This document shows positions 23,618 through 33,660 of a stretch of DNA of 64,000 nucleotides, piece by piece; within the stretch, counting starts at the first letter, position 1, and every line of letters begins with the position of its first letter. Position numbers and translations under genes: made by a program. Source of the stretch: Escherichia coli (GTDB lineage Bacteria > Pseudomonadota > Gammaproteobacteria > Enterobacterales > Enterobacteriaceae); NCBI RefSeq assembly GCF_003790525.1, contig NZ_CP033635.1. One strand, written 5' to 3'. The notes beneath the pieces are model-generated. The model saw nothing but the letters and a program-made list of their open reading frames with translations, had not been told where the DNA came from and did no database searches.

Positions 23618-24493
23618 ATGACCAGTAGCTATCTGCATTTTCCGGAGTTTGATCCGGTCATTTTCTCAATAGGACCCGTAGCGCTTCACTGGTACGGCCT
23701 GATGTATCTGGTGGGTTTCATTTTTGCAATGTGGCTGGCAACACGTCGGGCGAATCGTCCGGGCAGCGGCTGGACCAAAAATGAAGTTGAAAACTTACTC
23801 TATGCGGGCTTCCTCGGCGTCTTCCTCGGTGGACGTATTGGTTATGTTCTGTTCTACAATTTCCCGCAGTTTATGGCCGATCCGCTGTATCTGTTCCGTG
23901 TCTGGGACGGCGGCATGTCCTTCCACGGCGGCCTGATTGGCGTTATCGTGGTGATGATTATCTTCGCCCGCCGTACTAAACGTTCCTTCTTCCAGGTTTC
24001 TGATTTTATCGCCCCACTCATTCCGTTTGGTCTTGGTGCCGGGCGTCTGGGCAACTTTATTAACGGTGAATTGTGGGGCCGCGTTGACCCAAACTTCCCG
24101 TTTGCCATGCTGTTCCCTGGCTCCCGTACAGAAGATATTTTGCTGCTGCAAACCAACCCGCAGTGGCAATCCATTTTCGACACTTACGGTGTGCTGCCGC
24201 GCCACCCATCACAGCTTTACGAGCTGCTGCTGGAAGGTGTGGTGCTGTTTATTATCCTCAACCTGTATATTCGTAAACCGCGCCCAATGGGAGCTGTCTC
24301 AGGTTTGTTCCTGATTGGTTACGGCGCGTTTCGCATCATTGTTGAGTTTTTCCGCCAGCCCGACGCGCAGTTTACCGGTGCCTGGGTGCAGTACATTAGC
24401 ATGGGGCAAATTCTTTCCATCCCGATGATTGTCGCGGGTGTGATCATGATGGTCTGGGCATATCGTCGCAGCCCACAGCAACACGTTTCCTGA
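23618..24493 (+). CDS. lgt: Prolipoprotein diacylglyceryl transferase
   Basis: 291-aa membrane [37 protein letters not shown]... Confidence 0.9.
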
Positions 24494-24499
24494 GGAACC

Positions 24500-25294
24500 A
24501 TGAAACAGTATTTAGAACTGATGCAAAAAGTGCTCGACGAAGGCACACAGAAAAACGACCGTACCGGAACCGGAACGCTTTCCATTTTTGGTCATCAGAT
24601 GCGTTTTAACCTGCAGGATGGATTCCCGCTGGTGACAACCAAACGTTGCCACCTGCGTTCCATCATCCACGAACTGCTGTGGTTCCTGCAGGGCGACACT
24701 AACATTGCTTATCTACACGAAAACAATGTCACCATCTGGGACGAATGGGCCGATGAAAACGGCGACCTCGGGCCAGTGTATGGTAAACAGTGGCGCGCCT
24801 GGCCAACGCCAGATGGTCGTCATATTGACCAGATCACTACGGTACTGAACCAGCTGAAAAACGACCCGGATTCGCGCCGCATTATTGTTTCAGCGTGGAA
24901 CGTAGGCGAACTGGATAAAATGGCGCTGGCACCGTGCCATGCATTCTTCCAGTTCTATGTGGCAGACGGCAAACTCTCTTGCCAGCTTTATCAGCGCTCC
25001 TGTGACGTCTTCCTCGGCCTGCCGTTCAACATTGCCAGCTACGCGTTACTGGTGCATATGATGGCGCAGCAGTGCGATCTGGAAGTGGGTGATTTTGTCT
25101 GGACCGGTGGCGACACGCACCTGTACAGCAACCATATGGATCAAACTCATCTGCAATTAAGCCGCGAACCGCGTCCGCTGCCGAAGTTGATTATCAAACG
25201 TAAACCCGAATCCATCTTCGACTACCGTTTCGAAGACTTTGAGATTGAAGGCTACGATCCACATCCGGGCATTAAAGCGCCGGTGGCTATCTAA
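24500..25294 (+). CDS. thyA: Thymidylate synthase
   Basis: 264-aa [34 protein letters not shown]..., catalytic Cys region [13 protein letters not shown]. Confidence 0.9.
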
Positions 25295-25315
25295 TTACGA
25301 AACATCCTGCCAGAG

Positions 25316-25343
25316 CCGACGCCAGTGTGCGTCGGTTTTTTTT
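25316..25343 (+). terminator. Intrinsic terminator after thyA
   Basis: CCGACGC-cagtgt-GCGTCGG followed by TTTTTTTT. Confidence 0.65.
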
Positions 25344-25478
25344 ACCCTCCGTTAAATTCTTCGAGACGCCTTCCCGAAATTTTGCAATGTCCTGCAACGG
25401 CGTAAATAGTCCGGAAGATGCGCCGAAGAAATAGAAACTGGCCCTCGTCTTTTTTTCTCCTCGCTCCATACTGCCGGC

Positions 25479-25949
25479 ATGAAAACACAACGTGGTTATA
25501 CGCTGATTGAAACGCTGGTCGCGATGCTGATTCTGGTCATGCTAAGCGCAAGTGGGCTCTATGGCTGGCAATATTGGCAGCAGTCGCAACGGCTTTGGCA
25601 AACCGCCAGCCAGGCGCGGGACTATTTGCTCTATTTACGTGAAGATGCCAACTGGCATAACCGCGACCACAGTATCAGTGTTATCAGGGAGGGGACGTTA
25701 TGGTGCCTTGTGAGTTCCGCTGCTGGGGCCAATACCTGTCATGGCAGTTCACCATTGGTCTTTGTGCCACGCTGGCCCGAAGTCGAAATGAGCGATCTGA
25801 CACCTTCGCTTGCTTTCTTTGGCCTGCGCAATACCGCATGGGCCGGGCATATTCGCTTCAAAAACTCAACGGGCGAGTGGTGGCTGGTGGTTTCGCCGTG
25901 GGGAAGACTCCGGCTTTGTCAGCAAGGAGAAACAGAAGGATGCCTGTAA
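25479..25949 (+). CDS. ppdA: Prepilin-peptidase-dependent protein A (type IV pilin-like)
   Basis: 156-aa ORF with N-terminal prepilin motif [13 protein letters not shown]. Confidence 0.85.
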
Positions 25950-26503
25950 AAGAGCAAGGTTTTTCTCTGCTGGAAGTGTTGATTGCTATGGCGATCAGTA
26001 GCGTATTGTTGCTGGGGGCTGCACGCTTTCTGCCTGCGTTACAGCGTGAAAGTTTAACGAGCACCCGTAAGCTGGCGCTGGAAGATGAAATCTGGCTGCG
26101 GGTATTTACCGTCGCGAAGCATCTCCAGAGGGCGGGTTATTGTCATGGCAGCTGTACCGGCGAAGGGCTGGAAATTGTCGGACAGGGTGACTGTGTCATT
26201 GTGCAGTGGGATGCGAACAGTAACGGTATCTGGGATCGCGAACCGGTAAAAGAGTCCGACCAGATTGGATTTCGTCTGAAGGAGCATGTGCTGGAAACGC
26301 TACGCGGTGCGACATCCTGTGAAGGTAAGGGCTGGGATAAAGTGACTAATCCGGATGCCATCATTATCGACACTTTTCAGGTCGTACGTCAGGATGTCAG
26401 CGGCTTCTCGCCGGTGTTGACGGTTAATATGCGTGCTGCCAGTAAGTCTGAACCGCAAACCGTGGTGAATGCCAGCTATAGCGTGACAGGATTCAACCTG
26501 TGA
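25940..26503 (+). CDS. ppdB: Prepilin-peptidase-dependent protein B
   Basis: ORF 25700..26503; chosen start is the internal ATG at 25940 ([26 protein letters not shown], prepilin-like N-terminus), overlapping the ppdA stop. Confidence 0.8.
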
Positions 26504-26907
26504 ACCGCGAAAAGGGGGGCTCGTCACTGGCTCTGGTCCTGATGCTGCTGATTTTGGGTAGCTTGCTATTACAAGGAATGAGTCAGCAGGATCGCAGTTT
26601 TGCCTCTCGCGTGAGCATGGAAAGTCAGTCATTGCGCCGCCAGGCCATCGTTCAGTCGACGCTGGAGTGGGGAAAAATGCACTCCTGGCAGACACAGCCC
26701 GCAGTTCAGTGCTTACTGTACGCTGCCACCGGTGCCCGGGTTTGTCTGCGTTTATTGGCAGATAATGAGGCTTTATTGATTGCCGGTTATGAAGGCGTTT
26801 CGTTGTGGCGAACAGGCGAAGTCATCGATGGAAACATTGTTTTTTCGCCACGCGGCTGGAGCGATTTTTGTCCGCTGAAAGAGAGGGCGTTATGTCAGCT
26901 TCCCTGA
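26500..26907 (+). CDS. ygdB: Pilin-like hypothetical protein YgdB
   Basis: 135-aa ORF overlapping the ppdB stop; N-terminal hydrophobic segment. Confidence 0.8.
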
Positions 26908-27215
26908 AGAATCAACAAGGCTTTAGTCTGCCGGAGGTAATGTTGGCGATGGTGTTGATGGTGATGATTGTCACTGCGTTATCGGGTTTCCAGCGAACAT
27001 TAATGAACAGTCTTGCCAGCAGAAACCAGTACCAACAGCTCTGGCGGCATGGCTGGCAGCAAACGCAACTGCGTGCGATTTCGCCACCTGCCAACTGGCA
27101 GGTCAACCGAATGCAGACATCGCAGGCGGGATGTGTCAGCATCAACGTTACGCTAGTTTCACCCGGGGGCAGAGAAGGCGAGATGACCCGCCTGCATTGC
27201 CCGAATCGTCAGTAG
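26892..27215 (+). CDS. ppdC: Prepilin-peptidase-dependent protein C
   Basis: Internal ATG at 26892 of ORF 26805..27215 gives [21 protein letters not shown] (prepilin motif). Confidence 0.8.
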
Positions 27216-27227
27216 TCAGGAGCCGCT

Positions 27228-30200
27228 ATGTTAAGGGTCTACCATTCCAATCGTCTGGACGTGCTGGAAGCGTTGATGGAGTTTATTGTCGAACGCGAAC
27301 GGCTGGACGATCCTTTCGAACCAGAGATGATTCTGGTGCAAAGTACCGGTATGGCGCAGTGGCTGCAAATGACCCTGTCGCAAAAGTTTGGTATTGCGGC
27401 AAACATTGATTTTCCGCTGCCAGCGAGCTTTATCTGGGATATGTTCGTCCGGGTGTTACCGGAAATCCCCAAAGAGAGCGCCTTTAACAAACAGAGCATG
27501 AGCTGGAAACTGATGACTCTGCTGCCGCAACTGTTGGAGCGCGAAGACTTTACCCTGTTGCGGCATTATCTGACTGACGATAGTGACAAGCGAAAACTGT
27601 TCCAGCTTTCTTCAAAAGCGGCGGACCTGTTTGACCAGTATCTGGTCTATCGTCTGGACTGGCTGGCACAGTGGGAAACAGGACATCTGGTAGAAGGGTT
27701 GGGAGAAGCACAGGCCTGGCAAGCGCCGTTGTGGAAGGCGTTGGTGGAATATACCGACGAACTCGGGCAACCGCGCTGGCACCGCGCCAATCTCTATCAG
27801 CGCTTTATCGAAACGCTGGAGTCCGCGACGACCTGCCCGCCGGGGCTACCTTCGCGCGTCTTTATATGCGGTATTTCCGCGTTACCGCCTGTTTATCTCC
27901 AGGCGCTACAGGCGCTGGGTAAACATATTGAAATCCATCTCCTGTTTACCAACCCCTGCCGTTATTACTGGGGCGACATTAAAGATCCTGCTTATCTGGC
28001 GAAACTGCTGACTCGCCAGCGCCGACACAGTTTTGAAGATCGCGAATTACCGTTATTTCGCGACAGCGAAAATGCCGGACAGCTCTTTAACAGCGATGGT
28101 GAACAGGATGTCGGTAACCCGCTGCTGGCCTCATGGGGCAAGCTTGGGCGCGACTACATTTATCTTCTTTCTGACCTGGAGGGCAGCCAGGAGCTGGACG
28201 CTTTTGTCGATGTGACGCCAGACAACCTGCTGCATAACATTCAGTCTGACATTCTGGAACTGGAAAACCGCGCCGTTGCGGGTGTGAACATCGAAGAGTT
28301 TTCCCGTAGCGATAACAAACGCCCGCTTGATCCACTGGATAGCAGTATCACCTTCCACGTTTGCCATAGCCCGCAGCGTGAAGTTGAAGTTTTACACGAT
28401 CGCTTGCTGGCGATGCTGGAGGAAGACCCGACACTTACTCCGCGCGACATCATCGTGATGGTGGCCGACATCGACAGCTACAGTCCGTTTATTCAGGCAG
28501 TGTTTGGTAGCGCACCTGCGGATCGTTACCTGCCTTACGCCATTTCCGACCGTCGTGCGCGGCAGTCACATCCGGTACTGGAAGCGTTTATCAGCCTGTT
28601 ATCACTGCCTGACAGTCGCTTTGTGTCAGAGGATGTGCTGGCGCTGCTGGATGTGCCGGTGCTGGCGGCGCGGTTTGACATCACCGAAGAAGGGCTGCGT
28701 TATTTACGTCAGTGGGTCAACGAATCTGGCATTCGTTGGGGGATAGATGACGACAACGTTCGCGAGCTGGAACTCCCCGCCACCGGACAACACACCTGGC
28801 GATTTGGCCTGACGCGTATGTTACTAGGCTACGCGATGGAGAGCGCGCAGGGCGAGTGGCAATCGGTTCTACCTTATGATGAATCGAGCGGCTTAATTGC
28901 AGAACTGGTGGGGCATCTGGCTTCACTGCTAATGCAGCTAAACATCTGGCGTCGCGGGCTGGCGCAGGAGCGTCCGCTGGAAGAGTGGTTGCCGGTTTGT
29001 CGCGATATGCTCAACGCCTTCTTCCTGCCGGATGCGGAAACCGAAGCGGCGATGACGCTGATCGAACAACAATGGCAGGCGATTATCGCCGAAGGTTTAG
29101 GTGCGCAGTATGGCGACGCGGTGCCGCTGTCACTATTGCGTGATGAACTGGCACAGCGCCTGGATCAGGAACGTATCAGCCAGCGTTTTCTCGCCGGACC
29201 GGTTAACATTTGTACTCTGATGCCAATGCGTTCCATCCCATTCAAAGTGGTTTGCCTGCTGGGAATGAACGACGGCGTTTATCCACGCCAGCTTGCGCCA
29301 TTGGGCTTTGACCTGATGAGCCAGAAACCGAAGCGTGGCGACCGTAGCCGTCGCGATGACGACCGCTATCTGTTCCTGGAAGCGTTAATTTCCGCGCAGC
29401 AAAAACTCTATATCAGCTATATCGGGCGTTCTATTCAGGATAACAGTGAACGTTTCCCGTCGGTACTGGTGCAGGAACTGATCGACTACATCGGGCAAAG
29501 CCATTATCTACCGGGCGATGAAGCGCTCAACTGTGATGAAAGCGAGGCAAGGGTAAAAGCACATCTTACTTGCCTCCATACCCGAATGCCGTTTGATCCA
29601 CAAAACTACCAGCCAGGCGAACGACAAAGCTATGCTCGTGAATGGCTACCCGCGGCCAGCCAGGCTGGTAAAGCACATTCTGAATTTGTTCAGCAGCTGC
29701 CGTTTACCTTACCGGAAACCGTGCCGCTGGAAACGCTACAACGATTCTGGGCACATCCGGTGCGGGCATTTTTCCAGATGCGTTTGCAGGTGAACTTCCG
29801 TACCGAAGACAGCGAAATCCCCGACACCGAGCCATTTATTCTGGAAGGACTTAGCCGTTATCAAATCAATCAGCAGTTATTGAATGCACTGGTTGAGCAG
29901 GATGATGCCGAACGCTTGTTCCGCCGCTTCCGGGCGGCAGGGGATTTACCGTATGGCGCTTTTGGTGAAATTTTCTGGGAAACACAGTGCCAGGAGATGC
30001 AGCAGCTTGCCGACAGAGTCATTGCCTGTCGCCAGCCGGGGCAGAGTATGGAAATTGACCTCGCCTGCAACGGTGTGCAGATAACTGGCTGGTTGCCGCA
30101 GGTGCAGTCGGATGGCCTGTTGCGCTGGCGTCCCTCTTTATTAAGTGTGGCGCAGGGAATGCAACTTTGGCTGGAACACCTTGTCTACTGTGCCAGCGGT

Positions 30201-30596
30201 GGTAATGGTGAAAGTCGCCTTTTTCTACGCAAAGACGGCGAGTGGCGTTTTCCGCCGCTTGCAGCCGAACAGGCTTTACATTACCTCTCACAGCTGATTG
30301 AAGGGTATCGTGAAGGAATGTCCGCGCCATTGCTGGTGTTACCTGAAAGTGGCGGCGCGTGGCTAAAAACCTGTTATGACGCGCAAAACGATGCCATGCT
30401 GGATGACGATTCCACGTTGCAAAAAGCCCGAACGAAATTCCTTCAGGCTTACGAAGGCAACATGATGGTGCGTGGCGAAGGTGATGATATCTGGTATCAA
30501 CGGCTCTGGCGGCAATTAACACCAGAGACAATGGAGGCCATCGTTGAACAGTCGCAACGTTTCCTGTTACCGCTGTTTCGCTTTAATCAGTCATGA
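27228..30596 (+). CDS. recC: Exodeoxyribonuclease V gamma subunit
   Basis: 1122-aa ORF MLRVYHSNRLDVLEALMEF... Confidence 0.9.
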   Translation: MLRVYHSNRLDVLEALMEFIVERERLDDPFEPEMILVQSTGMAQWLQMTLSQKFGIAANIDFPLPASFIWDMFVRVLPEIPKESAFNKQSMSWKLMTLLPQLLEREDFTLLRHYLTDDSDKRKLFQLSSKAADLFDQYLVYRLDWLAQWETGHLVEGLGEAQAWQAPLWKALVEYTDELGQPRWHRANLYQRFIETLESATTCPPGLPSRVFICGISALPPVYLQALQALGKHIEIHLLFTNPCRYYWGDIKDPAYLAKLLTRQRRHSFEDRELPLFRDSENAGQLFNSDGEQDVGNPLLASWGKLGRDYIYLLSDLEGSQELDAFVDVTPDNLLHNIQSDILELENRAVAGVNIEEFSRSDNKRPLDPLDSSITFHVCHSPQREVEVLHDRLLAMLEEDPTLTPRDIIVMVADIDSYSPFIQAVFGSAPADRYLPYAISDRRARQSHPVLEAFISLLSLPDSRFVSEDVLALLDVPVLAARFDITEEGLRYLRQWVNESGIRWGIDDDNVRELELPATGQHTWRFGLTRMLLGYAMESAQGEWQSVLPYDESSGLIAELVGHLASLLMQLNIWRRGLAQERPLEEWLPVCRDMLNAFFLPDAETEAAMTLIEQQWQAIIAEGLGAQYGDAVPLSLLRDELAQRLDQERISQRFLAGPVNICTLMPMRSIPFKVVCLLGMNDGVYPRQLAPLGFDLMSQKPKRGDRSRRDDDRYLFLEALISAQQKLYISYIGRSIQDNSERFPSVLVQELIDYIGQSHYLPGDEALNCDESEARVKAHLTCLHTRMPFDPQNYQPGERQSYAREWLPAASQAGKAHSEFVQQLPFTLPETVPLETLQRFWAHPVRAFFQMRLQVNFRTEDSEIPDTEPFILEGLSRYQINQQLLNALVEQDDAERLFRRFRAAGDLPYGAFGEIFWETQCQEMQQLADRVIACRQPGQSMEIDLACNGVQITGWLPQVQSDGLLRWRPSLLSVAQGMQLWLEHLVYCASGGNGESRLFLRKDGEWRFPPLAAEQALHYLSQLIEGYREGMSAPLLVLPESGGAWLKTCYDAQNDAMLDDDSTLQKARTKFLQAYEGNMMVRGEGDDIWYQRLWRQLTPETMEAIVEQSQRFLLPLFRFNQS

Positions 30597-30771
30597 GTGC
30601 TGTATAAAAATTGCGCAATATATCTGCTTGCTTTATGATGCGCACCAGTCACGGACTGATGGATATATAGACATAGGCTGACTCGTGCAGCACAAGATTA
30701 AATTCTGGCAGATGATTTGCGTTAACCTGTTGAATCTGGCCAGAAAATAAAGTTGATTATGAGGTCCGTGA

Positions 30772-33660
30772 ATGCCCCGCAGCATCTGGTTCAAAGCATT
30801 ATTGTTGTTTGTTGCCCTTTGGGCACCCTTAAGTCAGGCAGAAACGGGATGGCAGCCGATTCAGGAAACCATCCGTAAAAGTGATAAAGATAACCGCCAG
30901 TATCAGGCTATACGTCTGGATAACGGTATGGTGGTCTTGCTGGTTTCTGATCCGCAGGCGGTTAAATCGCTCTCGGCGCTGGTGGTGCCCGTTGGGTCGC
31001 TGGAAGATCCCGAGGCGTATCAGGGGCTGGCGCATTACCTTGAACACATGAGTCTGATGGGGTCGAAAAAGTACCCGCAGGCTGACAGTCTGGCCGAATA
31101 TCTCAAAATGCACGGCGGCAGTCACAATGCCAGCACGGCACCGTATCGCACGGCTTTCTATCTGGAAGTTGAGAACGACGCCTTGCCCGGTGCGGTAGAC
31201 CGCCTGGCGGACGCTATTGCAGAACCCTTGCTCGACAAGAAATACGCCGAACGTGAACGTAATGCAGTGAATGCCGAATTAACCATGGCGCGTACGCGTG
31301 ACGGGATGCGCATGGCACAGGTCAGCGCAGAAACCATTAACCCGGCACACCCCGGTTCAAAGTTTTCTGGTGGTAACCTCGAAACCTTAAGCGACAAACC
31401 AGGTAATCCGGTACAGCAGGCGCTGAAAGATTTCCACGAGAAGTACTATTCCGCCAATCTGATGAAGGCGGTTATTTACAGTAATAAACCGTTGCCGGAG
31501 TTGGCAAAAATGGCGGCGGACACCTTTGGTCGCGTGCCGAACAAAGAGAGCAAAAAACCGGAAATCACCGTGCCGGTAGTCACCGACGCGCAAAAGGGCA
31601 TTATCATTCATTACGTCCCGGCGTTGCCGCGTAAAGTTCTGCGCGTTGAGTTTCGCATCGATAACAATTCAGCGAAGTTCCGTAGTAAAACGGATGAATT
31701 GATTACCTATCTGATTGGTAATCGCAGCCCAGGTACACTTTCTGACTGGCTGCAAAAGCAGGGATTAGTTGAGGGTATTAGCGCCAATTCCGATCCTATC
31801 GTCAACGGCAACAGCGGCGTATTAGCGATCTCTGCGTCTTTAACCGATAAAGGTCTGGCGAATCGCGATCAGGTTGTGGCGGCCATTTTTAGCTACCTCA
31901 ATCTGTTACGCGAAAAAGGGATTGATAAACAATACTTCGATGAACTGGCGAATGTGCTGGATATCGACTTCCGTTATCCGTCAATCACCCGTGATATGGA
32001 TTACGTCGAATGGCTGGCAGATACCATGATTCGCGTTCCTGTTGAGCATACGCTGGATGCAGTCAATATTGCCGATCGGTACGACGCTAAAGCAGTAAAA
32101 GAACGCCTGGCGATGATGACGCCGCAGAATGCGCGTATCTGGTATATCAGCCCGAAAGAGCCGCACAACAAAACGGCTTACTTTGTCGATGCGCCGTATC
32201 AGGTCGATAAAATTAGCGCACAAACTTTCGCTGACTGGCAGAAAAAAGCCGCCGACATTGCGCTCTCTTTGCCAGAGCTTAACCCCTATATTCCTGACGA
32301 TTTCTCGCTGATTAAGTCAGAGAAGAAATATGACCATCCAGAGCTGATTGTTGATGAGTCGAATCTGCGTGTGGTGTATGCGCCAAGCCGTTATTTTTCC
32401 AGCGAACCCAAAGCTGATGTCAGCCTGATTTTGCGTAATCCAAAAGCCATGGATAGCGCCCGCAATCAGGTGATGTTTGCGCTCAATGATTATCTCGCAG
32501 GGCTGGCGCTTGATCAGTTAAGCAACCAGGCGTCGGTTGGTGGCATAAGTTTTTCCACCAATGCTAACAACGGCCTTATGGTTAATGCCAATGGTTACAC
32601 CCAGCGCCTGCCGCAGCTGTTCCAGGCATTGCTCGAGGGGTACTTTAGCTATACCGCTACGGAAGATCAGCTTGAGCAGGCGAAGTCCTGGTATAACCAG
32701 ATGATGGATTCTGCAGAAAAGGGCAAAGCGTTCGAGCAGGCGATTATGCCCGCGCAGATGCTCTCGCAAGTACCATACTTCTCGCGAGATGAACGGCGCA
32801 AAATTTTGCCCTCCATTACTTTGAAAGAGGTGATGGCCTATCGCGACGCCTTAAAATCAGGGGCTCGACCAGAGTTTATGGTTATCGGCAACATGACCGA
32901 GGCCCAGGCAACAACGCTGGCACGCGATGTGCAAAAACAGTTGGGCGCTGATGGTTCGGAGTGGTGTCGTAACAAAGATGTCGTGGTCGATAAAAAACAA
33001 TCCGTCATCTTTGAAAAAGCCGGTAACAGCACCGACTCCGCACTGGCAGCGGTATTTGTACCGACTGGCTACGATGAATACACCAGTTCAGCGTATAGTT
33101 CTCTGTTGGGGCAGATCGTACAGCCGTGGTTCTACAATCAGTTGCGTACCGAAGAACAGTTGGGCTATGCCGTGTTTGCGTTTCCAATGAGCGTGGGGCG
33201 TCAGTGGGGCATGGGCTTCCTGTTGCAAAGCAATGATAAACAGCCTTCATTCTTGTGGGAGCGTTACAAGGCGTTTTTCCCGACCGCAGAAGCGAAACTG
33301 CGGGCGATGAAGCCAGAAGAGTTTGCGCAAATCCAGCAGGCGGTAATTACCCAGATGCTGCAGGCACCGCAAACGCTCGGCGAAGAAGCATCGAAGTTAA
33401 GTAAAGATTTCGATCGCGGCAATATGCGCTTCGATTCGCGTGATAAAATCGTGGCCCAGATAAAACTGCTGACGCCGCAAAAACTTGCTGATTTCTTCCA
33501 TCAGGCGGTGGTCGAGCCGCAAGGTATGGCTATTCTGTCGCAGATTTCCGGCAGCCAGAACGGGAAAGCCGAATATGTGCATCCTGAAGGCTGGAAAGTG
33601 TGGGAGAACGTCAGCGCGTTGCAGCAAACAATGCCCCTGATGAGTGAAAAGAATGAGTGA
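30772..33660 (+). CDS. ptrA: Protease III (pitrilysin), periplasmic M16 zinc metalloprotease
   Basis: 962-aa ORF with signal peptide and inverted zinc motif HYLEHM. Confidence 0.9.
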   Translation: MPRSIWFKALLLFVALWAPLSQAETGWQPIQETIRKSDKDNRQYQAIRLDNGMVVLLVSDPQAVKSLSALVVPVGSLEDPEAYQGLAHYLEHMSLMGSKKYPQADSLAEYLKMHGGSHNASTAPYRTAFYLEVENDALPGAVDRLADAIAEPLLDKKYAERERNAVNAELTMARTRDGMRMAQVSAETINPAHPGSKFSGGNLETLSDKPGNPVQQALKDFHEKYYSANLMKAVIYSNKPLPELAKMAADTFGRVPNKESKKPEITVPVVTDAQKGIIIHYVPALPRKVLRVEFRIDNNSAKFRSKTDELITYLIGNRSPGTLSDWLQKQGLVEGISANSDPIVNGNSGVLAISASLTDKGLANRDQVVAAIFSYLNLLREKGIDKQYFDELANVLDIDFRYPSITRDMDYVEWLADTMIRVPVEHTLDAVNIADRYDAKAVKERLAMMTPQNARIWYISPKEPHNKTAYFVDAPYQVDKISAQTFADWQKKAADIALSLPELNPYIPDDFSLIKSEKKYDHPELIVDESNLRVVYAPSRYFSSEPKADVSLILRNPKAMDSARNQVMFALNDYLAGLALDQLSNQASVGGISFSTNANNGLMVNANGYTQRLPQLFQALLEGYFSYTATEDQLEQAKSWYNQMMDSAEKGKAFEQAIMPAQMLSQVPYFSRDERRKILPSITLKEVMAYRDALKSGARPEFMVIGNMTEAQATTLARDVQKQLGADGSEWCRNKDVVVDKKQSVIFEKAGNSTDSALAAVFVPTGYDEYTSSAYSSLLGQIVQPWFYNQLRTEEQLGYAVFAFPMSVGRQWGMGFLLQSNDKQPSFLWERYKAFFPTAEAKLRAMKPEEFAQIQQAVITQMLQAPQTLGEEASKLSKDFDRGNMRFDSRDKIVAQIKLLTPQKLADFFHQAVVEPQGMAILSQISGSQNGKAEYVHPEGWKVWENVSALQQTMPLMSEKNE

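Follow-up and report, generated by a model that had tools for sequence, protein, structure and literature searches.

The window, a stretch of 64,000 nucleotides of Escherichia coli DNA, carries the ppdA-ppdB-ygdB-ppdC operon directly upstream of recC. The open reading frame (ORF) list and the RefSeq annotation agree in placing all four genes on the + strand at 25479-27215, and the genes and regulatory features described below lie on this strand unless stated otherwise. The operon starts with ppdA (25479-25949), which encodes a prepilin peptidase-dependent minor pilin of 156 amino acids according to RefSeq, Pfam and NCBIfam. It is followed by ppdB (25940-26503), a minor pilin of 187 residues, ygdB (26500-26907), a DUF2509 protein of 135 residues with a GTG start, and ppdC (26892-27215), a minor pilin of 107 residues. 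The recC gene (27228-30596) encodes the gamma subunit of exodeoxyribonuclease V (1122 amino acids) and starts with an ATG at 27228 in both the ORF list and RefSeq. The DNA of the window is 100% identical to the annotated record of E. coli SMS-3-5, while the identity of the stretch to most E. coli genomes is 95-99%. As many as 5425 of the 5426 complete E. coli genomes carry the ppdABygdBppdC-recC locus, and the thyA-ppdABygdBppdC-recC synteny is complete in each of the 80 Enterobacteriaceae species fetched, spanning about 20 genera; given these numbers, the identity and arrangement of the locus are far beyond chance. The region is an ordinary, already documented core-genome E. coli operon, ppdA-ppdB-ygdB-ppdC, and the gene identities given in the preliminary description of the sequence are correct, as RefSeq, Pfam and NCBIfam agree on them.

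The overlapping stop/start junctions reported in that description measure 10 nt between ppdA and ppdB (ATGCCTGTAA), 4 nt between ppdB and ygdB (GTGA) and 16 nt between ygdB and ppdC, and an AAGGAG is located 10 nt 5' of the ppdB ATG. Translation of the four genes would probably be coupled through these junctions. Longer ORFs, 25700-26503 and 26805-27215, enclose the annotated starts of ppdB (25940) and ppdC (26892), respectively. These internal positions are the true starts, as had been proposed, since each annotated ATG opens a class III signal peptide and the NCBIfam models align over their full length from the first residue. The start codons are also kept from genus to genus, with ATG or GTG in 69 of 80 sequences for ppdB and in 80 of 80 for ppdC.

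Prepilins were recognized by a short basic leader with Gly(-1) as its last residue, a hydrophobic segment, a Glu at +5 and a PF07963 or TIGR02532 score above the curated cut-off. PpdA, PpdB and PpdC display all these features, in line with the earlier claim of at least three prepilin N-termini. From reading of the sequence, the PpdA leader MKTQRG leads into the cleavage-site motif G|YTLIE, the PpdB leader MPVKEQG into G|FSLLE, and the PpdC motif is G|FSLPE. The Pfam N_methyl model (PF07963, cut-off 21.2 bits) scores 30 bits for PpdA (E 3.3e-7), 35.5 for PpdB (E 6e-9) and 28.3 for PpdC (E 1.2e-6), and TIGR02532 (cut-off 16.3) yields 24.3, 29.5 and 24.3 bits, respectively. Each of the four proteins has its own equivalog family in NCBIfam (NF007800, NF007848, NF008569 and NF007660, in gene order) and passes its model with E-values of about 1e-65 to 1e-99: 1.1e-74 for PpdA, 1.4e-98 for PpdB and 7.1e-65 for PpdC, the last aligned over residues 1-107 of 107. 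PpdC also matches Pfam T2SSppdC (E 3e-30). Processing by a prepilin peptidase, both cleavage and N-methylation, is predicted here, the term "prepilin peptidase-dependent" being a name from annotation.

YgdB is the non-canonical fourth member. Profile searches with Pfam and NCBIfam found no N_methyl or TIGR02532 match, and its only Pfam family is DUF2509. Its N-terminus, MNREKGG|SSLALV, possesses the hydrophobic segment without Phe+1 or Glu+5; in the 30 species compared, the Gly is invariant and both other residues are absent. A search of solved structures by sequence did not return any match for YgdB, and only a marginal Thermus pilin match for PpdB. The predicted model of YgdB exhibits a pilin fold, a long N-terminal α-helix on an antiparallel β-sheet, nearest to minor pilins of the GspI/GspK type. 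GspK and PilX also lack Glu5, and YgdB, having no N_methyl motif, would likewise be pilin-like by fold only. As judged from sequence motifs and the predicted fold, the products of the operon are type IV minor pilins, namely three canonical prepilins and, as the fourth, YgdB.

Upstream, the operon is insulated from thyA by the thyA intrinsic terminator (25316-25343), which comprises a CCGACGC/GCGTCGG stem, a CAGTGT loop and a T8 tract. It folds with -16.6 kcal/mol (z = -2.64), and the hairpin is kept in 60 species with compensatory changes (CCGACGC/GCGTCGG versus CCGGTGC/GCGCCGG). Induction of the operon by Sxy with CRP is mentioned in a passage of PMC12616744 that cites Sinha 2009 and Jaskolska and Gerdes 2015. 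A CRP-S site was defined as TGCGA-N6-TCGCA or, in E. coli, TGCGA-N6-TTCCA (PMC6728893), upstream of the operon. The sequence TTCGA-GACGCC-TTCCC (TTCGAGACGCCTTCCC, 25360-25375) is the best candidate for a Sxy-dependent CRP site at the ppdA promoter and agrees with 8 of the 10 positions of the E. coli consensus. Conservation of this block extends over 60 species, Buttiauxella harboring a perfect TGCGAGCCTCCTTCCA. We infer that Sxy and CRP switch on the operon probably through this conserved CRP-S-like site. A direct repeat, TGCAA-N5-TGCAA (25383-25397), is nearly invariant across genera; it occurs once in the window, which alone is not beyond chance, and its support comes from cross-species conservation. 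Sigma-54 and several response-regulator boxes were considered for these repeats and rejected by their consensus sequences.

Close to ppdA, a -10-like hexamer, CATACT (25467-25472), has its last T 7 nt before the A of the ATG. In 60 species the CA-n-ACT pattern keeps A2, A4 and T6 invariant and a distance to the ATG fixed at 6-7 nt. Neither reading of the sequence nor the 60-species alignment found a Shine-Dalgarno sequence upstream of ppdA, and the mRNA of ppdA may be leaderless, with the -10 CATACT 7 nt before the ATG. A transcription start set by this hexamer, the sole conserved -10-like element, would center the CRP-S-like site at about -111.5, an unusual position for a class I activator. 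Standard class I/II spacings were rejected, as no conserved -10-like hexamer stands at the positions corresponding to -41.5, -61.5, -71.5, -82.5 or -92.5.

At the other end of the operon, a spacer of 12 nt (27216-27227), holding a Shine-Dalgarno AGGAG at 27218-27222, separates the ppdC stop from the recC ATG. The preliminary description had counted 13 bp here, and the end it gave to the pilin-like group, 27240, reaches 13 nt inside recC. Of the 80 species, 68 have a spacer of 12 nt, 7 one of 15 nt, 4 one of 7 nt and a single species one of 13 nt, with (A/G)GGAG as a conserved motif in it. A scan of 24400-31000 returned 8 terminator-like matches versus 7.2 expected by chance, none of them at the ppdC-recC junction; the matches within 25479-27227 fall in segments coding for hydrophobic residues, and none is convincing as an intrinsic terminator. 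Folding of the junction does not differ from that of shuffled sequence (z = +0.37), an Rfam E-value scan of 24400-31000 gave no family, and RNAalifold did not detect any structure with covariation in the last 125 nt of ppdC. The genes from ppdA to recC are hence arranged as a polycistronic unit is, on the same strand, with short or overlapping junctions and with no terminator before recC. The name ppdAB-ygdB-ppdC-recC is already in use for an operon (PMC3936743). The supplements of SMRT-Cappable-seq and of Kim 2012 contain no entry for these genes or coordinates. Because the spacer is 12 nt long and no terminator intervenes, RNA polymerase from the ppdA promoter would be expected to run on into recC. 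The junction free of terminator and structure, kept at 7-15 nt in 80 species, makes read-through architecturally plausible, and the operon naming in databases and literature agrees with it.

A candidate weak sigma-70 promoter for recC, proposed from conservation, is located in the last third of ppdC (27114-27142). It is formed by a -35 CAGACA (27114-27119), a 17-bp spacer, an extended -10 TG (27134-27135) and a -10 CAGCAT (27137-27142), and would set the transcription start at about 27149-27150, 78-79 nt 5' of the recC ATG. The blocks GCAGACA (27113-27119) and GATGTGTCAGCATCA (27130-27144) are invariant in 80 species, synonymous sites included. The codons of the residues GCVSI rank first of 850 five-codon windows, with a third-position conservation of 0.973 versus 0.896 for the next, whereas nearby residues are equally conserved and yet vary synonymously. 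On the plus strand, invariant bases account for A2 and T6 of the -10, for the extended TG and for the exact spacing of 17 bp. Compared to consensus the promoter is weak, with 4 of 6 matches in the -35 and 3 of 6 in the -10. A consensus promoter scan of 24400-31000 found no + strand promoter; this promoter/terminator scan also overlooked the clear terminator of thyA, so that it counts for little here. A published CRISPRi guide described as targeting the recC promoter maps to 27151-27170, immediately 3' of the candidate promoter, and recC is treated as an operon of its own in a recent paper (PMC12342828). The site of the guide may have been chosen only for lying 5' of the ATG, with no mapped promoter as its target. 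From the conserved motif and the position of the guide, recC most probably has its own weak predicted sigma-70 promoter within ppdC, which would be the source of basal, Sxy-independent expression.

The explanation that best accommodates these observations, and that we consider likely, is a Sxy/CRP-S minor-pilin operon that reads into recC, together with a weak internal recC promoter. The architecture fits the earlier suggestion that read-through may contribute to recC expression, with the 12-nt spacer, the junction devoid of terminator and the named operon. In view of the evidence for a promoter inside ppdC, read-through is probably a supplement to basal recC expression, most likely under Sxy induction, and not its main source. 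The preliminary description had held that a terminator together with an independent promoter between ppdC and recC would speak against read-through; there is no terminator at the junction, and the candidate promoter lies inside ppdC instead.

Three other readings of recC expression have to be weighed against this combined one. According to the first, which is unlikely, recC would be expressed essentially only from the ppdC-internal promoter, transcripts from ppdA being rare, Rho-ended or processed, and read-through negligible. A promoter candidate is present and recC has been treated as a separate operon; the competence literature describes a low basal expression of ppd, and weak translation of ppdA, which lacks a Shine-Dalgarno sequence, would favor Rho-dependent polarity. 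Overlapping translated ORFs, however, normally shield a transcript from Rho, and 25479-27227 is free of any convincing intrinsic terminator. Moreover, the maintenance of the 7-15 nt junction in 80 species and, per the literature, in Pasteurellaceae suggests that the linkage itself is selected.

The second reading, somewhat less likely still, concerns the invariant blocks of ppdC (27113-27119 and 27130-27144), which might instead act as an antisense promoter, be bound by an unknown factor or work at the mRNA level, for example in processing or as an sRNA site. The weakness of the plus-strand hexamers leaves room for it, as do the minus-strand CTGACA, which has 5 of 6 bases of the -35 consensus, and a 4-bp inverted repeat, GATG...CATC. 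Yet the minus-strand -10 candidates are poor and without the critical A at position 2, whereas on the plus strand invariant bases supply the -10 A2 and T6, the TG and the 17-bp spacing. RNAalifold and Rfam do not point to an RNA signal either, and the location agrees with the published "recC promoter" guide. The third, that recC lacks a separate promoter and is expressed only as the last of five genes transcribed from the ppdA promoter, perhaps translationally coupled across the 12-nt junction, can draw on the tight terminator-free junction, the operon name in use and the consensus scan of 24400-31000 without + strand promoter, and is nonetheless highly improbable: the ppd promoter is described as Sxy-dependent and recC function is required constitutively, so that a silent ppd promoter would not suffice, and the nucleotide-invariant -35/extended -10 arrangement inside ppdC, the guide labelled "recC promoter" at 27151-27170 and the description of recC as a separate operon all argue against it.

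With the combined reading, recC seems to be fed from two sources, one a probable constitutive promoter in ppdC and the other a possible competence-regulated read-through. Deletion or synonymous recoding of ppdC could alter recC expression unintentionally. Earlier publications cover the genes, their minor-pilin function, their regulation through Sxy/CRP-S, an operon name with recC in it and the conserved adjacency to recC; the locus is of little weight as a discovery, and its value resides mainly in the annotation of the recC inputs. A more far-reaching idea, which we regard as doubtful, is that the pilin-recC fusion is a selected regulatory coupling, in which read-through after Sxy/CRP-S induction of the DNA-uptake pilus would raise the level of RecC separately from RecB and RecD, atop the constitutive ppdC promoter. 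Were it true, the stoichiometry of the RecBCD subunits would shift during DNA uptake.

The closest known system is the ppdAB-ygdB-ppdC-recC unit of E. coli K-12 (b2826-b2822, PMC3936743), which has the same genes, order, overlaps and junction, and from which the window differs by strain-level substitutions only and in nothing of substance. In Haemophilus influenzae, comNOPQ (HI0938-HI0941) comprises four pilin-like genes of similar size, directly upstream of recC in the same orientation; it is Sxy/CRP-S regulated and treated as orthologous to the ppd genes (PMC1635313, PMC12616744). The comparison with Pasteurellaceae is based on the literature, the search for PpdC homologues having returned relatives at the level of Enterobacteriaceae only.

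The GspH-I-J-K and FimU-PilV-PilW-PilX sets are likewise four co-encoded small pilin-fold proteins, three with Glu5 and one without, and the ppd genes reproduce this tetrad as four adjacent, co-oriented small pilin-fold genes, one of which lacks Glu5. HMM similarity is weak, of PpdA to GspH (E 0.0014) and of PpdB to GspJ (E 2e-4), and none of the four proteins reaches the curated cut-off of a Gsp/Pil equivalog model, the best scores being 18.7 bits against 80 for GspH, 21.2 against 64.85 for GspJ and 17.8 against 52.2 for PilV. YgdB, with 135 amino acids, is far smaller than GspK (about 280 residues of aligned chain) and does not possess the large inserted domain of the latter. Unlike the Gsp/Pil clusters compared, the ppd cluster adjoins recC and has no neighboring assembly ATPase or secretin. 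According to published work, PpdA, PpdB, YgdB and PpdC jointly prime the assembly of a pilus or pseudopilus fiber: in a pulHIJK mutant they can stand in for PulHIJK and prime the assembly of the PulG pseudopilus, according to the citation of Cisneros 2012 in PMC5131608.

The four pilin-like genes preceding recC all lie on the + strand: ppdA (25479-25949), ppdB (25940-26503), ygdB (26500-26907, with a GTG start) and ppdC (26892-27215, ending with a TAG stop at 27213-27215), as read from the ORF list and the raw sequence, with recC (3369 nt) following from 27228. Successive ppd genes overlap by 10, 4 and 16 nt, in agreement with the preliminary description, whereas the gap before recC, put there at 13 bp, measures 12 nt (27216-27227, + strand) and contains AGGAG (27218-27222) ahead of the recC ATG. 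A megablast search of complete E. coli genomes with 25300-27400 returned a match in 5425 of 5426, with 100% identity in strain SMS-3-5 and others. The RefSeq annotation of SMS-3-5 reads thyA, ppdA, ppdB, ygdB, ppdC, recC, ptrA, and its positions agree exactly. The identities proposed for the four genes are borne out by this annotation as well as by Pfam and NCBIfam matches.

Pfam places PpdA, PpdB and PpdC above the N_methyl threshold, and additionally assigns PpdC to T2SSppdC and YgdB to DUF2509. Each of the four proteins passes its own NCBIfam equivalog model (E-values of 1e-65 to 1e-99). The minor pilins GspH, GspJ, PilV and ComG show weak, sub-threshold similarity. The prepilin leaders of PpdA, PpdB and PpdC end in Gly, followed by YTLIE, FSLLE or FSLPE; the YgdB N-terminus has a conserved Gly and then a hydrophobic stretch, and lacks the Phe+1 and Glu+5 of the prepilin motif. 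Extended ORFs are present for ppdB (25700-26503) and ppdC (26805-27215), and the true starts had been proposed to be internal to them. The annotated internal starts are indeed favoured, since with them the proteins open with a class III signal peptide, alignments to the NCBIfam models run from residue 1, and the start codons are conserved (ATG or GTG in 69/80 sequences for ppdB and 80/80 for ppdC). The ygdB start is RTGA in all, overlapping the ppdB stop.

Using RecC residues 1-300 as query and one genome per species, 80 Enterobacteriaceae loci were recovered from ~20 genera, and each sufficiently long locus displays the order thyA-ppdA-ppdB-ygdB-ppdC-recC. The ppd proteins are ~45-60% identical where, in the same genomes, ThyA reaches ~94% and RecC ~80%; they are therefore fast-evolving. 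This rapid divergence accompanies unchanged gene order, overlaps and spacer length when loci L002-L081 are set against 25479-27215. The ppdC-recC spacer is 12 nt long in 68 species, 15 in seven, 7 in four and 13 in one, harbors (A/G)GGAG in every case, and is too short for an intergenic terminator or promoter in all 80 species. To note, the PpdC entries P0065, P0069, P0078, P0087 and P0110, from E. coli and Shigella, are truncated or extended (58-146 amino acids vs 107), which hints at frameshifts or ppdC pseudogenes in some strains.

Footprinting of the ppdA upstream region in 60 species identified five conserved elements. The first is a strong intrinsic terminator at the thyA 3' end (25316-25343, + strand), overlooked by a simple terminator scan and showing compensatory stem changes between genera (CCGACGC/GCGTCGG vs CCGGTGC/GCGCCGG). 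It is followed by a CRP-S-like site (25360-25375, + strand) that agrees at 8/10 positions with the CRP-S consensus of E. coli, as quoted in PMC6728893, and is perfect in Buttiauxella. Just 3' of this site sits a direct repeat, TGCAA-N5-TGCAA (25383-25397, + strand), nearly invariant across ~20 genera. We know of no binding-site consensus that matches this repeat. The last two elements are a CTCG block (25444-25447) and a -10-like CA-n-ACT (25467-25472, + strand), whose final T precedes the first base of the ppdA start codon by 7 nt. The proximity of the latter to the ATG and the absence of a Shine-Dalgarno sequence ahead of ppdA in every footprinted species suggest that the ppdA mRNA may be leaderless. 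The CRP-S centre would then stand at ~ -111.5, a nonstandard activation distance.

Read-through from the ppd operon into recC had also been proposed. The scan revealed no convincing terminator inside the operon or at the recC junction, the count of terminator-like matches equalling chance expectation. Folding of the ppdC-recC junction is no better than that of shuffled sequence, RNAalifold yields no covariation-supported structure, and no Rfam family was found. In the RNAalifold consensus, GCCC from the ppdC His-Cys-Pro codons can pair with the GGAG of the recC Shine-Dalgarno (27199-27222); as changes are one-sided only, and covariation is absent, this pairing is probably not meaningful. With neither a convincing terminator nor a junction structure, the layout therefore permits read-through, an architecturally sound prediction. 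The idea is already embodied in a database operon, and the name ppdAB-ygdB-ppdC-recC is in use (PMC3936743).

The 80-species nucleotide alignment uncovers two invariant blocks in the otherwise variable ppdC, GCAGACA (27113-27119) and GATGTGTCAGCATCA (27130-27144). At the codon level, CAG ACA and GGA TGT GTC AGC ATC are 98-100% invariant, whereas the nearby Pro (at position 27162), Arg (27189) and Leu (27192), equally conserved as amino acids, undergo free synonymous change. Of 850 five-codon windows covering thyA, ppdA to ppdC and recC codons 1-300, GCVSI ranks first, with a third-position majority of 0.973 against 0.896 for the runner-up. Invariance at synonymous sites of these codons and not of their neighbours thus argues for nucleotide-level selection. 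The invariant bases are readable as a -35 CAGACA separated by 17 bp from a -10 CAGCAT (A2 and T6 present) that is preceded by the TG of an extended -10, with a predicted transcription start ~78-79 nt 5' of the recC ATG. The main rival, an antisense promoter, could draw on a minus-strand -35 CTGACA but would have a poor -10. We lean, with moderate confidence, towards a candidate recC promoter within ppdC as the likely meaning of these bases; it would probably be the constitutive recC promoter. A published CRISPRi guide “targeting recC promoter” corresponds to 27151-27170, directly downstream of the invariant blocks, and a recent paper gives recC its own operon (PMC12342828); a recC promoter inside ppdC is probably not new. 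Within recC itself, the sigma-54 binding motif CTGGAACAGTTTTCGCT has an exact match at 27589-27605 on the minus strand, listed as intragenic antisense site IA22 in recC by Bonocora et al. 2015 (PMC4591121).

The ppd-recC locus observation is confirmed and already known, with nothing new in it: that these genes sit next to recC in Enterobacteriaceae and Pasteurellaceae alike was pointed out in 2006 (PMC1635313) and again in 2025 (PMC12616744). According to PMC5131608, PpdA, PpdB, YgdB and PpdC are type IV minor pilins able to prime assembly of the PulG pseudopilus, replacing PulHIJK. The ppd operon is reported to be Sxy-induced and is treated as the counterpart of comNOPQ in H. influenzae, an operon required for DNA uptake (PMC12616744).
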